Shown piece by piece: positions 10,418 to 36,110 of a stretch of 64,000 bases of DNA. Both the position numbers and the translations under genes were made by a program. The notes under the pieces were generated by a model. It was not told the origin of the DNA and ran no database searches. It saw nothing but the letters and a program-made list of their open reading frames with translations. The stretch's first letter is position 1; each line of letters starts with the position of its first letter. Source of the stretch: Escherichia phage vB_EcoM-pEB20; the sequence record OP114733. One strand, 5' to 3'.

Positions 10418-10786
10418 ATGAAAATCAATCTGAACTCATACATCAAATGTAAAGACCACGATGGTTATAAAGCTATCGAAATTAAAGAATTCCAGTGGAT
10501 GTTATACAAAGAGCAATTTGAGTTCGTAGGTTGTATGACCCCTGAAGGTCCTTCTGATGATTTCTCTTGGAAAATTGTGTTAGCAAACTTTTTCACAGGT
10601 GACACATACGAATTAAAAACTATTATTACCGGTAAAATTCGTTCAGAAACATATGTTGACGAAGAAACTGGTTACTCTGAAGATGTTACATGGTATCAAA
10701 ATGGGCGCATTACAGCAGATAACCTGATCGAAAAAATGAAAGCCAAAGGTGTTTTAAATTTAGACAATTGGATTAAAGTTGCATAA
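10418..10786 (+). CDS. Hypothetical early protein (122 aa), paralog family member
   Basis: ORF with GGAGAA RBS; shares a CMTP-containing motif with the next ORF. Confidence 0.55.
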   Translation: MKINLNSYIKCKDHDGYKAIEIKEFQWMLYKEQFEFVGCMTPEGPSDDFSWKIVLANFFTGDTYELKTIITGKIRSETYVDEETGYSEDVTWYQNGRITADNLIEKMKAKGVLNLDNWIKVA

Positions 10787-10790
10787 AACA

Positions 10791-10819
10791 GTTTACTTTG
10801 GTACAGGTTATGTTATTAT
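10791..10819 (+). promoter_or_regulatory. T4-type early promoter (GTTTACT-N16-TATTAT) framed by a 10-bp inverted repeat
   Basis: Read directly; TGGTACAGGT and ACCTGTACCA flank the -10. Confidence 0.55.
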
Positions 10820-10860
10820 AGACCTGTACCAACAAACAACTTAAACATCTGGAGAATAAA

Positions 10861-11226
10861 ATGAACTACACCAACTTCGAACGTAAATATGTTTCTAACG
10901 GTATTGCTGGTTCTTCTGAAGTTATTTGCTTATGGAAACACGAAAACGGTACAGTTTGTGAAATCGAACAGTGCATGACTCCTAATTACGTTTATATGCG
11001 ATTTGAAAATGGTATCACGGTTTCAATCACGATGGAAGGTTCAAATTTTAAAATTGCATTAGATGATGATTTCCGTCAGCGTGATTTAGGTACTCATCCT
11101 TGCTGGAATGGTGTTAATCGTAAACTTCTGGTTAAAACTTGGATTCGTCATATCCTGAGTAACCGAGCTAAACCTGAACATCTCGAAGCAATCTTTGATG
11201 TAGTTCTTAACGAATTTGATATCTAA
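10861..11226 (+). CDS. Hypothetical early protein (121 aa), paralog family member
   Basis: ORF with GGAGAA RBS. Confidence 0.55.
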   Translation: MNYTNFERKYVSNGIAGSSEVICLWKHENGTVCEIEQCMTPNYVYMRFENGITVSITMEGSNFKIALDDDFRQRDLGTHPCWNGVNRKLLVKTWIRHILSNRAKPEHLEAIFDVVLNEFDI

Positions 11227-28164: not shown

Positions 28165-28193
28165 GTCAAATTACCATGTAATAAATATAGTTA

Positions 28194-28201
28194 TATTTAT
28201 A
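28194..28201 (-). promoter_or_regulatory. Late promoter TATAAATA (minus strand) for uvsW
   Basis: Forward tatttata about 30 nt upstream of the uvsW start. Confidence 0.55.
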
Positions 28202-28214
28202 ATGAGGAAATACC

Positions 28215-28883
28215 ATGATCGATAAAGACTATATTGAAGAGTTACGTGCTCTTTCTGATAAAAAGGAAGCCAAAGCTAAACTGTTCGAATATGCGGAACA
28301 ATTTGGCATTAGTGTTAAGAAAACAAAATCATTCGATAATATTGTTATTGATATCGAAGAAGCTCTTAACGCACTGGCTGATGAACCATTACCTGAAACT
28401 GATGGATTATCTATCACCGATTTAATTACTGCCGCAGATGATGTGGACGGTGTTAATTTCACTAATGAAGAAGTTAAAGAAGAAGCTATTCTGTTGTTTG
28501 ATTCTCCAACAGAACAAGTTGAAGTATTAGAAGTTGTCGAACAAGAAAAAGAATTCGACCATGATAAATTCGAAGAAGCAATTACTCAGGTTGTTGAATC
28601 TGAAAAAGAGCCTGAGCCAGAGGTAAATAAAGAAGTAAAATTTGTTCTGCCTGAAAATTTTAGTCCTACACTCATTAAATTAGGCAAAGGCCCAGGATAT
28701 GTTACTGTTCCTTGGTGGATTTATCAATGGATAGCCGAAACCCCGGATTGGAAATCTCGTCCAACCAGTTTTGTGCACGCTTCTGCTCACCAAACATTAT
28801 TTAGCTTAATTTATTATATTAATCGCGATGGATCAGTTCTAATTCGTGAAACTCGTAATTCTTCTTTCGTAACATTAAAATAA
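28215..28883 (+). CDS. inh: Putative Inh (inhibitor of prohead protease), positional
   Basis: 222 aa ORF directly upstream of hoc, as in T4. Confidence 0.55.
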   Translation: MIDKDYIEELRALSDKKEAKAKLFEYAEQFGISVKKTKSFDNIVIDIEEALNALADEPLPETDGLSITDLITAADDVDGVNFTNEEVKEEAILLFDSPTEQVEVLEVVEQEKEFDHDKFEEAITQVVESEKEPEPEVNKEVKFVLPENFSPTLIKLGKGPGYVTVPWWIYQWIAETPDWKSRPTSFVHASAHQTLFSLIYYINRDGSVLIRETRNSSFVTLK

Positions 28884-28892
28884 GGATAACTT

Positions 28893-30050
28893 ATGGCTTT
28901 TACAGTTGATATAACTCCTAAAACACCTACTGGAGTTATAGATCAGACTCAGCAGTTTACTGCTACTCCCAGTGGTGAAACTGGAGGTGGAACTATTACC
29001 TATGCATGGAGTGTAGACGATGCTCCTCAAGTAGGATCGGCAGAAACTTTTGATTATGTGTTAAAAGGACCCGCTGGAACAAAAACAATTAAAGTTGTTG
29101 CAACAAATACACTTTCTGAAGGAGGCCCGGAAACGGCTGAAGCGACAACAACTATCACAATTCAAAATAAAACTCAGACAACTACGTTGGCAGTAACTCC
29201 TAATAGCCCTGACGCTGGAGTAATTGGAACAGCTATTGAATTTACTGCCGCTTTAGCTTCGCAGCCATCGGGCGCAAACGCTACTTATCAATGGTATGTA
29301 GATGATTCACAGGTTGGTGGAGAAACTAACTCTACATTCAATTACACTCCTGCCGAAAGCGGGGTAAAAAGAATTAAGTGTGTGGCCCAAGTAACCGCAA
29401 CAGATTATGACGCACTAAGCGTTACTTCTAATGAAGTGTCACTGACTGTTAATAAAAAGACACAGACAACTACGTTGGCTGTAACTCCGGCTTCTCCGGC
29501 GGCAGTAGAAATTGGAACAGCAACAACATTCACTGCTAATGTAAGCAATCAACCTGCTAGTGCCGTTATTGCTTATACATGGAAAGTTGATGGTTCTACT
29601 ATTAGTGGTCAAACGCAATCAACCTTTAAATATATACCAACATCTGAAGGAACTAAGTCTATAACTTGTTCTGTCACGGTGACTGCAACCAATTATGATG
29701 ATAAAACAGTAGAATCGTCACCGGTGTCTTTGACCGTAAATAAGAAGACAATGAATCCACAGGTTACGTTGACCCCTCCTTCTATTAATGTTCAGCAAGA
29801 CGCTTCAGCCACATTTACTGCTAATGTCACTGATGCACCACCAGAAGCACAAATTACTTATTCATGGAAGAAAGATTCTTCTCCTGTAGAAGGATCAACT
29901 AACGTGTATACTGTCGATACCTCATCTATCGGAAGTCAAACTATTGAAGTTACTGCAACTGTTACCGCTACTGATTATGATAGCAAAACTATTACAGCAG
30001 AAGGTCAAGTTCAGGTAACCGATAAAGTTGCTCCAAAACCAGAAGGTGAA
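28893..30050 (+). repeat. Four tandem ~290-bp coding repeats (Ig-like domain units) within hoc
   Basis: Repeats 2 and 3 share near-identical DNA stretch cagacaactacgttggc.gtaactcc at 29164 and 29458. Confidence 0.7.
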
Positions 30051-30311
30051 CTACCTTATGTTCATCCTCTTCCGCACCGTACTTCAGCTTATATCTGGTG
30101 TGGTTGGTGGGTTATGGATGAAATCCAAAAAATGACTGAAGAAGGTAAAGATTGGAAAACTGACGACCCGGATAGTAAGTACTACTTGCATCGTTACACG
30201 CTTCAGAAGATGTTGAAAGACTATCCAGAAGTTGATGTTCAAGAATCACGTAACGGATACATCATCCATAAAACTGCTTTGGAAACTGGTATCATCTATA
30301 CATATCCATAA
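28893..30311 (+). CDS. hoc: Hoc, highly immunogenic outer capsid protein with four tandem Ig-like domains
   Basis: 472 aa; four ~95-aa repeats each with Y.W and TATDYD-like motifs, plus C-terminal domain. Confidence 0.85.
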   Translation: MAFTVDITPKTPTGVIDQTQQFTATPSGETGGGTITYAWSVDDAPQVGSAETFDYVLKGPAGTKTIKVVATNTLSEGGPETAEATTTITIQNKTQTTTLAVTPNSPDAGVIGTAIEFTAALASQPSGANATYQWYVDDSQVGGETNSTFNYTPAESGVKRIKCVAQVTATDYDALSVTSNEVSLTVNKKTQTTTLAVTPASPAAVEIGTATTFTANVSNQPASAVIAYTWKVDGSTISGQTQSTFKYIPTSEGTKSITCSVTVTATNYDDKTVESSPVSLTVNKKTMNPQVTLTPPSINVQQDASATFTANVTDAPPEAQITYSWKKDSSPVEGSTNVYTVDTSSIGSQTIEVTATVTATDYDSKTITAEGQVQVTDKVAPKPEGELPYVHPLPHRTSAYIWCGWWVMDEIQKMTEEGKDWKTDDPDSKYYLHRYTLQKMLKDYPEVDVQESRNGYIIHKTALETGIIYTYP

Positions 30312-30315
30312 TCGT

Positions 30316-30345
30316 AAGGGGCCGAAGCCCCTTTCTTCGTTTTTA
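30316..30345 (+). terminator. Terminator hairpin AGGGGC-CGAA-GCCCCU + T-rich tail after hoc
   Basis: Read directly. Confidence 0.6.
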
Positions 30346-30407
30346 AAGCATACAAAACACAACTTGAGATTGATGTATATAATGGCACAAACCAAATAAT
30401 ATGGGAA

Positions 30408-33711: not shown

Positions 33712-35280
33712 TTAGATGCCTTTTACATATACACGGCGGAAGTAAGCGTTCTTACCAAGGCTGTTCAGGATAGACGGCATACCGGACTGGATGCGAGCAC
33801 CTGGAGCCTGCAGGGAACTTTCAGCAAACGGGTTAACACCGATACCGTAACGAGTTTTAAAGCCCATTACCGGCTGGAAGTTCTTAGGATCGGAACCACG
33901 CAGTGGGGTAAGTGCAACGTAAGGAGCATAGTAAATACCTGCATCCATTTCGTTAGCGCCTTTGTAACCAACGGTGAAGTAATCCTGTTTAGCATACTGG
34001 TCGATGTATACGCGGTATTTACCACCAAGTACACCGGCAAATACAGACTTAGTAGTGTCGGTATTAAAACCAGAAGCCAGACCCTGTGCAGCGTAAGAAA
34101 TACCAGTATCAACTGAAGCCAGTACGTTAACTACGTTACGGGAAGCGATAATGAAGTTACCTTCACCACGACCGGTTTGACGAGCAATTTCAACTGCTTC
34201 TTTATCAATCTGGAACAACAGAGCTTTAAAGCTTTCGCCGGCCCAACGAGCACCACGGATATCAATCGGGTCCTGGAAGTCAAATACACCAGCTTTAGAA
34301 CCAACGATATTAGTCATACCAGATTTACCAACCTGAGCGGAGTAGTTAATCCAGTCAACAACTTCACGGTTGATTTCCAGCATAATTTCAGTAGCAAGAA
34401 TACCACTCAGTTCAGCATCAGCATCCATACCGTGTACTGCACGGAGGTCTTGTGCCAATTCGATAGAGTAAGCTGCTTTCAGCTGACGAGATTTAGCTTC
34501 AATAACTTGTTTGTCGATACGGAAGCCCATTTCGTTCCACGGGTTGTCGGTAGAACCATTGAAGCCTTCCTGAAGTTCAGCGATAGAAGTAGCCATACCT
34601 TCAGCGATTTCTACCAGTGCGCCAGCTTCCATTTGTTTGATAATTTCTGCATCTAATTTAGCTGCATCATCAGCACTTGAACTAATTGTTACTTGAGCAG
34701 AAGCTTGCAGATATACAGTACCAGTTTCCTGGAAGAAGTGAGTATAGATATCACCTACTGTGGTTTGTGTGCTAGCAGCCAGAGCTGGGAATTTCTTAGC
34801 AGCACCCTGACCAGAGAACATCGCATCTGGAGCATACATCGGATGGAAAGCTTCTTTAGCGCCAGCAGCGATAGGGTCTTTACCATATACTGCACGGAGA
34901 GCAAATACCTGACCGGTAGGGCTGTTCATAGGCTGAACACCACAAATATCAAAAGCGATCAGATTAGGAATAGCACGACGAACCATACCCATAACTGCTG
35001 GCCCAATCTGGGTTACTGCACCAGAGGTTTGACCTGCTGCGATGTTCTGAGCATTATAACCATGGTCACCACCAATTTCAGCTTCGGTCAAGAAAGAACC
35101 AAATGCCTGAGCGATTTTCTCGTCTTTATATTCAGGGGATACTTCGAAATCTTTTTCCTGGTTTTCGAAGATTTTAGCGATAATAGCCTGCTTGCTATTA
35201 GCGATTTCCGGCAGGCCTTCACCTTCCAGCAGTTCTTTCCATTTGTCTACGAGCTGAGCTTTAGTTTTGATAGTAGTCAT
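33712..35280 (-). CDS. 23: Major capsid protein gp23
   Basis: 522 aa; T4 gp23-like N-terminus (MTTIKTKAQLVDKWKELLEGEGLPEIANSKQAIIAKIFENQEKDFE). Confidence 0.93.
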   Translation of the reverse strand: MTTIKTKAQLVDKWKELLEGEGLPEIANSKQAIIAKIFENQEKDFEVSPEYKDEKIAQAFGSFLTEAEIGGDHGYNAQNIAAGQTSGAVTQIGPAVMGMVRRAIPNLIAFDICGVQPMNSPTGQVFALRAVYGKDPIAAGAKEAFHPMYAPDAMFSGQGAAKKFPALAASTQTTVGDIYTHFFQETGTVYLQASAQVTISSSADDAAKLDAEIIKQMEAGALVEIAEGMATSIAELQEGFNGSTDNPWNEMGFRIDKQVIEAKSRQLKAAYSIELAQDLRAVHGMDADAELSGILATEIMLEINREVVDWINYSAQVGKSGMTNIVGSKAGVFDFQDPIDIRGARWAGESFKALLFQIDKEAVEIARQTGRGEGNFIIASRNVVNVLASVDTGISYAAQGLASGFNTDTTKSVFAGVLGGKYRVYIDQYAKQDYFTVGYKGANEMDAGIYYAPYVALTPLRGSDPKNFQPVMGFKTRYGIGVNPFAESSLQAPGARIQSGMPSILNSLGKNAYFRRVYVKGI

Positions 35281-35297
35281 TTGTGTTAACCTTTAAA

Positions 35298-36110
35298 TTA
35301 GAAACGAGATGCGACTTTCGCATATAAACTTACATTAGAATTCTGTTCTACCTGAGTTGTGGTAGTGTCAACTGCTTCGGCAACAAAATTAAGACCGGCA
35401 GCGTCATTGTCAACTGTATTTATACTTTCGGTAATAGCGGCTTCTTCTTTAGTAGAACCTTTAACCATTTCTACAATAGCAGTTAACTTAGTACCAAATG
35501 CGTCAGAATAATCCATACCTTCAACCAGGCCAATAACTTTTTCTTTCTGAGATTCAGTCAGGTCTTTTACGCTTTCATTAATAGCGGTTTCACGCTGAAC
35601 GTAATTGATATATGCATCACGTTTGGTAACTTCTTCGAACAAACGAGCGGTTTCTTCTTTATGTTCGGCCAGCTCTTCTTCCATTTCTGCTACAACATCT
35701 ACAGATTCTTCTGGAACAACAACGTTATGTTCAACAAACAGTTCTTTCAGACCACCAAGCATGGATTCGAACAAATCAGCTTTAATGCCTTTATCAACTG
35801 CGATTTGGTTTTCTGCGAGCCATTCTTTTGCAAGATGGTCCAGGAATTTAGAAGCTTGTTCAGCCAATTTTTTATCAGCTTTCTCTTCAGCATCTTCTTT
35901 AGCCTTTTCAACTTCTTCTTCGGCCTTTTCGGCGATGGCTTTGATATGAGATTCAGCCAGTTTGACTGCTTCCTGCTTAACGGTGGCTTCGAATACAGTG
36001 CTGAAATTAGCTTTAACGTCCGGAGACAGTTCTACTGATTCGAAAACACTATTAAGAGCAACTGAAGTCTCGATGTTCTGAGCTTCTTTCAAAAGTTGTT
36101 CTTTGATCAT
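35298..36110 (-). CDS. 22: Prohead core scaffold protein gp22
   Basis: 270 aa, acidic, Glu/Lys/Ala-rich; synteny. Confidence 0.85.
   Translation of the reverse strand: MIKEQLLKEAQNIETSVALNSVFESVELSPDVKANFSTVFEATVKQEAVKLAESHIKAIAEKAEEEVEKAKEDAEEKADKKLAEQASKFLDHLAKEWLAENQIAVDKGIKADLFESMLGGLKELFVEHNVVVPEESVDVVAEMEEELAEHKEETARLFEEVTKRDAYINYVQRETAINESVKDLTESQKEKVIGLVEGMDYSDAFGTKLTAIVEMVKGSTKEEAAITESINTVDNDAAGLNFVAEAVDTTTTQVEQNSNVSLYAKVASRF
35417..35424 (-). promoter_or_regulatory. Candidate late promoter TATAAATA for gene 23, inside the gene 22 coding region
   Basis: Forward tatttata 137 nt upstream of the gene 23 start. Confidence 0.4.

Follow-up and report, generated by a model that had tools for sequence, protein, structure and literature searches.

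The hoc gene of Escherichia phage vB_EcoM-pEB20 encodes a T4-like Hoc protein in which the core of the third of four Ig-like domains is of the RB69 type. The gene was studied in a 64,000-nucleotide stretch of the phage DNA (sequence record OP114733), which is called the window below. Its 472-aa product is an ordinary Hoc (highly immunogenic outer capsid protein, a head decoration protein) of a T4-like coliphage in the long, four-Ig form. The best explanation is very probably that of a T4-like Hoc with one extra fibre domain, the core of the third domain having been swapped in from an RB69-type allele with no recent duplication.

The hoc coding sequence (28893..30311, + strand; 472 aa plus stop codon) is the sole long open reading frame at this place in the ORF list. 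The protein matched the PHROG family 1149 'Hoc-like head decoration' (E=5e-137) and the T4 Hoc chain of PDB entry 5vf3 (E=7e-215), in agreement with the earlier note on this DNA, which had recognized a 472-aa Hoc homolog here. Immediately 5' of hoc lies inh, the gene of the inhibitor of prohead protease (28215..28883, + strand; PHROG 1051, E=6.6e-91). The stop codon of inh overlaps the putative ribosome-binding site of hoc, an AAGGA Shine-Dalgarno-like motif read from the sequence at 28882..28886 (+ strand), 6 nt 5' of the hoc ATG. A consensus scan detected a putative terminator, the GC-rich hairpin AAGGGGCCGAAGCCCCTT followed by a T-run (30316..30343, + strand), which begins 5 nt past the hoc stop codon; in phage DalCa a rho-independent terminator is annotated at the equivalent position.

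The gene order uvsW-inh-hoc-24.3-24.2-rnlB, with uvsW divergent and upstream, is that of T4, RB69 and APCEc01. Thus, hoc occupies its usual position in the T-even late-gene cluster, with inh upstream and 24.3, 24.2 and rnlB downstream, and its position corresponds to that of the gene for T4 Hoc (NP_049793; PDB 5vf3 chain Z; 376 aa). The uvsW-inh intergenic region (28165-28214) contains no segE homing-endonuclease gene, whereas T4 has segE between inh and uvsW. No exact copy of the T4 late promoter TATAAATA was found on the + strand upstream of inh and hoc, where only AATAAATA is present; an exact TATAAATA copy was found at 28194-28201 on the - strand, facing uvsW. In the whole window TATAAATA occurs 17 times (7.3 expected; 17 was reached in 0/100 shuffles), mostly on the - strand between 33 and 42 kb, which fits T4-type late promoters in the cluster of structural genes. 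The G+C content of the window peaks at 34001-36000 (0.429, compared to about 0.38 elsewhere).

For counting the domains, the protein was cut at the recurring linker (N)K(K)T, which yielded units 1-92, 93-188, 189-284 and 285-380. All six of the six possible pairs among the four units were significantly similar (blastp E values from 4e-6 to 3e-34), and the four units have the pattern F-T-A / Y-x-W / T-A-T-x-Y in common. The C-terminal 92 amino acids were unrelated to the four units in the blastp self-comparison. When scanned alone, each unit matched PKD/Ig models of Pfam, weakly and mostly near or below the curated cut-offs: with the PKD model unit 3 was above the cut-off (25.7 bits vs 23.5) and unit 2 at the cut-off, with units 1 and 4 below it. 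A Pfam scan of the whole protein had given overlapping weak PKD/Ig matches, from which alone no domain number follows, and for the domain count it was replaced by the per-unit scans and the self-comparison. The AlphaFold2 model, computed from a 41-sequence alignment, displayed four consecutive all-beta domains (pLDDT about 90 over aa 1-380) followed by a C-terminal domain of low confidence, which was partly helical. The best Foldseek matches in the PDB were four-Ig fragments, namely the N-terminal four Ig domains of Dscam1 and D1-D4 of ICAM-5; the TM-scores were low (0.16-0.32) because of differing inter-domain angles, so these matches support a string of four Ig domains only, not homology.

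The N-terminal part of the protein is thus a string of tandem Ig-like (PKD/I-set-like) domains. Domain 1 (aa 1-92; 28893..29168, + strand) is of the T4 type (T1), sharing 85% aa identity with domain 1 of T4 and 66% with that of RB69. Domain 2 (aa 93-188; 29169..29456, + strand; Pfam PKD, E=6e-5) is also T4-type (T2, the 'a' copy), sharing 90% aa identity with domain 2 of T4 and 94% with the first of the domain-2 copies in phage FT. Domain 3 (aa 189-284; 29457..29744, + strand) is the extra unit relative to T4; its linker is T4-type, and the domain-2 core after it is RB69-type. Domain 4 (aa 285-380; 29745..30032, + strand; Pfam I-set and Ig_3, E about 6e-5) is the ortholog of T4 domain 3 (T3), to which it is 86% identical in amino acid sequence, the identity to FT, RB30 and APCEc01 being 97-99%.

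In an alignment with T4 Hoc (PDB 5vf3_Z, 376 aa) residues 1-190 of the window protein corresponded to T4 residues 1-190, and residues 278-472 to T4 residues 182-376; the window protein therefore equals T4 Hoc plus exactly one 96-aa unit, inserted between T4 domains 2 and 3. T4 domains 1, 2 and 3 are the counterparts of window domains 1, 2 and 4. The earlier note had predicted four Ig-like repeats before a C-terminal capsid-binding domain and had given T4 Hoc as a 376-aa protein with three such domains. Both statements hold: the self-comparison, the per-unit Pfam scans, AlphaFold2 and Foldseek, and with them the domain prediction that the note had proposed as a check, gave four units, not three, while T4 hoc is 1131 nt long, i.e. 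encodes 376 aa, and the published model of T4 Hoc has three domains of the Ig-like kind and a capsid-binding domain at the C terminus (PMC10385173).

The capsid-binding domain at the C terminus (aa 381-472; 30033..30308, + strand) matched PHROG 21694 (E=8e-42) and is 97% identical to residues 285-376 of T4 Hoc. It is homologous to the capsid-binding domain of T4 Hoc (residues about 281-376) and contains the Glu-Ser-Arg-Asn-Gly motif described for that domain (PMC10385173) as E451-S-R-N-G455 (30243-30257, + strand), in alignment columns that are invariant or nearly so in 41 sequences.

When the individual domains were compared with those of seven other Hoc proteins, there was one outlier, window domain 3. 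Domains 1, 2 and 4 and the C-terminal domain were 76-99% identical to the RB30-type four-Ig proteins, whereas domain 3 was only 57-60% identical to domain 3 of the RB30-type proteins and to domain 2 of T4 and APCEc01. In tblastn and blastn searches of the phage collection with domain 3 alone, RB69, the O157 typing phages 3, 6 and 13, phiC120, DalCa, CCU7 and a few others were best; these RB69-type matches reached 80-85% aa and 87-89% nt identity, with every T4-type domain at or below 61.5% aa. The matching domain is domain 2 in RB69 and DalCa (Hoc of 471 aa) and domain 3 of five in CCU7 (567 aa). With RB69 domain 2, its closest relative, window domain 3 shared 81% aa identity overall, 84-85% over the core and 88.8% at the nucleotide level (blastn); the two differ at aa about 222-241 and 267-277. 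In the matrix of domain types the window domain 3 (W3) had 56-59% aa identity to T2, compared to 81-83% between T2a and T2b and 44% between T3 and R4, and RB69 R3 formed a separate type.

The RB69-type cassette extends from 29478 to 29743 (+ strand) and is bounded by two recombination junctions, which were located from codon match strings and informative sites. Codon by codon, the window sequence is FT/T4-type through the linker KKTQTTTLAVTP 5' of the cassette. It switches from FT/T4-type to RB69-type within GTAACTCC (codons about 196-199) and from RB69-type to FT-type within AATAAGAAGAC (codons 283-286). The informative sites were FT/T4-type up to 29477, RB69-type at 29480-29738 (96/108) and FT-type from 29744 onwards (54/55). 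RB69-type sites thus made up 96/108 inside the cassette vs 1/55 from 29744 onwards (Fisher p=4e-30). The breakpoints behind this test, about 29478 and 29743, were placed post hoc on a three-sequence comparison.

The RB69 affinity is limited to the core of domain 3, domains 1, 2 and 4 being T4-type. RB69 Hoc (NP_861884, 471 aa, R1-R2-R3-R4-C) and the DalCa-type proteins have, like the window protein, four Ig-like domains and the same C-terminal domain, but the window protein does not have all four RB69 domain types in order: the shared domain stands at position 2 in RB69 and at position 3 in the window, and RB69 domains 1, 3 and 4 are other allele types (66%, 40% and 45% aa identity to window domains 1, 3 and 4). 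The RB30/RB27/FT/mobillu-type Hoc (472 aa) has the same length, the same four-Ig frame and the same T4-type linkers flanking domain 3. In those proteins domain 3 is a copy of the T4-type domain 2 (81-82% aa identity between the copies), whereas in the window domains 2 and 3 are not such paralogous T4-type copies (about 76% nt, 81% aa), the core of domain 3 being RB69-type with 57-60% identity to theirs.

A Logan contig (L011, from SRR18107515) has the same hoc architecture in the same synteny. Over about 410 nt, which comprise the RB69-type cassette and the start of domain 4, the two sequences differ by one mismatch (window 29481-29893 vs contig 10589-11001); elsewhere the identity was 86% in hoc domain 1, 81% in domain 2 and 98.8% in inh. 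Such a sharp mosaic boundary is further evidence of exchange inside hoc.

These observations suggest the following course of events. The starting frame would have been the known four-Ig allele T1-T2a-T2b-T3-C of the RB30/FT type, which itself would have arisen through an older duplication of domain 2. Then about 265 nt, the core of the third domain, would have given way to the orthologous core of domain 2 from an RB69-type hoc allele, by homologous recombination or gene conversion (a double crossover or a conversion patch). Both junctions lie in short stretches conserved between the allele types: ...AVTP... in the linker and first strand, and ...NKK... at the end of the domain. Every sampled RB69-type allele differs from the cassette by about 11% in nucleotide sequence (identity only about 89%). 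Therefore, the donor either was unsampled or the event was not (very) recent, and the direction of the transfer is not provable.

A different origin was proposed in the earlier note, which had described near-identical DNA segments in repeats 2 and 3 and had taken them to suggest an internal duplication of relatively recent date. The spacing of units 2 and 3 is indeed exactly 288 nt, at the unit start they have 29/32 bases and an exact 17-nt run in common, and the RB30 GenBank record AY101183 of 2002 annotates such a repeat ('intragenic repeat led to appearance of additional immunoglobulin-like domain'). Over the whole 288-nt register without offset, the identity of the units is only 57.6% for DNA and 57.3% for protein. 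There are only three exact runs of at least 8 nt (17, 8 and 12 nt), and the linker and first strand, which make up the first 65 nt of the unit, contain them all. Tandem Repeats Finder reported no 288-nt array in 28800-30400, only a 12-nt micro-repeat, because the units are too diverged. In the true duplication alleles (RB30, FT, NHEP36, mobillu, Ec3-ASingh) the two domain-2 copies are 75-77% identical in nucleotide and 81-82% in amino acid sequence, values far above those of window domains 2 and 3. Moreover, RB69 domain 2 is 30 percentage points closer to the core of domain 3 than is any domain 2 of the T4 type, and the identity switches are abrupt rather than gradual. A relatively recent tandem duplication of domain 2 within this gene, followed by divergence of the copies, is therefore very unlikely as the origin of the fourth Ig domain, and the near-identity of the repeats was not borne out; unit 3 belongs to the RB69 domain-2 lineage, with breakpoints at about 29478 and 29743.

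An unequal, register-shifted crossover between alleles of different length, in place of a conversion patch in a four-Ig allele, could also bring an RB69-like domain into this position. The partners would be a T4-type allele and either a five-Ig allele T1-T2-R2-R3-R4-C of the CCU7 type or an unsampled three-Ig allele T1-R2like-T3-C, with the crossover at the conserved domain-end sequence VSLTVNKK. Hybrid alleles of the required five-Ig type are known (CCU7, P0039), and domain ends and linkers are conserved across the allele types. On the other hand, the 5' linker of window domain 3 is the T4-type KKTQTTTLAVTP, whereas CCU7 has the RB69-type KKENNSAVAVTP, so at least one further exchange would be needed, and a three-Ig allele of the type T1-R2like-T3-C was absent among the 139 proteins of the census described below. 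We regard this route as improbable, although less so than a recent duplication. An older common ancestry of the T2/R2 pair, combined with a homogenisation of its flanks at a later time, would produce a pattern similar to that expected from replacement of the domain core in a four-Ig allele, which we prefer.

The census comprised 139 Hoc proteins collected from the top database matches and from fetched loci, a sample biased towards long forms. Denoting T4-type domains by T, RB69-type domains by R, window domain 3 by W3 and the C-terminal domain by C, six architectures were found: T1-T2-T3-C (83/139), T1-T2-T2-T3-C (34/139), the window type T1-T2-W3-T3-C (10/139), T1-T2-T2-T2-T3-C (8/139), and T1-T2-R2-R3-R4-C and R1-R2-R3-R4-C (2/139 each). 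Five-Ig Hoc proteins thus come in two builds, the T4/RB69 hybrid T1-T2-R2-R3-R4-C (567 aa), represented by CCU7 (contig L010, 924-2627) and P0039, and the triple domain-2 form T1-T2-T2-T2-T3-C (568-570 aa), represented by UGKSEcP1/2; proteins P0001-P0008 are among the five-Ig proteins. In P0029 (468 aa), 4 aa are deleted from domain 4. The five-Ig alleles and the wider Hoc family resemble the window protein in having a conserved capsid anchor with a variable Ig-like string, and CCU7 Hoc likewise combines T4-type and RB69-type domains, but in the five-Ig alleles the number and order of the units and the positions of the junctions differ from those in the window. Counting three-Ig and four-Ig genomes by a threshold of at least 80% coverage was rejected, since a target of 376 aa can extend over two units of the query and a match of 1809/2097 nt already exceeds 80%.

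The source phage belongs to the genus Mosigvirus, to the mar005P1/APCEc01 group, to whose genomes the 20 kb around hoc are 97-98% identical in nucleotide sequence. The nearest genomic relatives have either a three-Ig hoc (APCEc01, mar005P1) or a four-Ig hoc (NHEP36, NHEP11, Ec3-ASingh); domain number is therefore polymorphic among near-identical genomes. The window hoc allele was present in no genome of the annotated phage collection (INPHARED, August 2025), and the best full-length hoc match in the collection based on it had 87.7% aa and 88.4% nt identity.

An exact look-up identified UYE94979.1 (NCBI), a 'capsid protein' of vB_EcoM-pJBB/pEB20, as 100% identical to the window Hoc. At 90% identity it falls into a nine-member cluster, made up of NCBI, ENA and Logan sequences, one member of which was found on 22 contigs. 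The product name 'capsid protein' says little about the protein and might be changed to Hoc. The paper describing pJBB puts the phage in Mosigvirus and leaves Hoc unmentioned (PMC12656860). RB69 and RB27 also have four-Ig Hoc proteins, Fokine et al. (2023) reported strings of one to ten Ig-like domains in 650 Hoc homologs (PMC10385173), and a two-Ig variant has been studied functionally (PMC11853027). A literature search for RB30 Hoc or for domain shuffling in hoc found nothing specific. A four-Ig Hoc is hence already known: the exact protein has been deposited, equivalents have been annotated since 2002 and the variability of domain number has been published. The comparison with related phages suggested in the earlier note confirmed one domain more than in T4, but four- and five-Ig forms turned out to be common in public data.

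Based on what is known of T4 Hoc (PMC10385173) and on the 97% identity of the anchor, each gp23 hexamer would have a single Hoc monomer fixed at its centre by the C-terminal 92 amino acids. The N-terminal part would project as a fibre of four tandem Ig-like domains, compared to three in T4, and the fibre should be one domain longer than that of T4. As the extra domain is of a type without counterpart in T4-type Hoc, it would present an additional, different binding surface, and it may alter the weak adherence to glycans and cell surfaces that is attributed to Hoc. An adaptive role of the variation in domain number, which the earlier note considered possible, is a reasonable idea, though one published before.

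T4-type Hoc is dispensable for infectivity. The proposed role of this capsid fibre is to let phages adhere to mucus and to mammalian or bacterial surfaces, and T4 nanoparticle vaccines use Hoc as their main display scaffold. How many Ig domains it has, and of which type, therefore matters for the persistence of phages in the gut and for the design of therapies. The results correct the origin of the extra domain in this protein from a recent duplication to recombination with an RB69-type allele, and add modestly to the evidence for exchange of Hoc Ig-domain cassettes at conserved linkers, the window hoc being a clean example of a single-domain cassette exchange between hoc allele families. A small population-genetic point is that Mosigvirus genomes with 97-98% nucleotide identity over 20 kb differ in both the number and the type of their Hoc domains. 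On balance we favour the more general view that the Ig domains of Hoc are exchangeable cassettes, whose conserved linkers and ends let co-infecting T-even phages duplicate, delete and swap single domains by homologous recombination. If so, such cassette exchange would have produced, among others, the window allele T1-T2-R2like-T3-C, and the 410-nt block shared with the Logan contig would be the trace of a recent exchange. The exchange would reach across genera (Tequatrovirus and Mosigvirus allele types) and would give the phages a combinatorial set of capsid adhesins, polymorphic even within one phage species.
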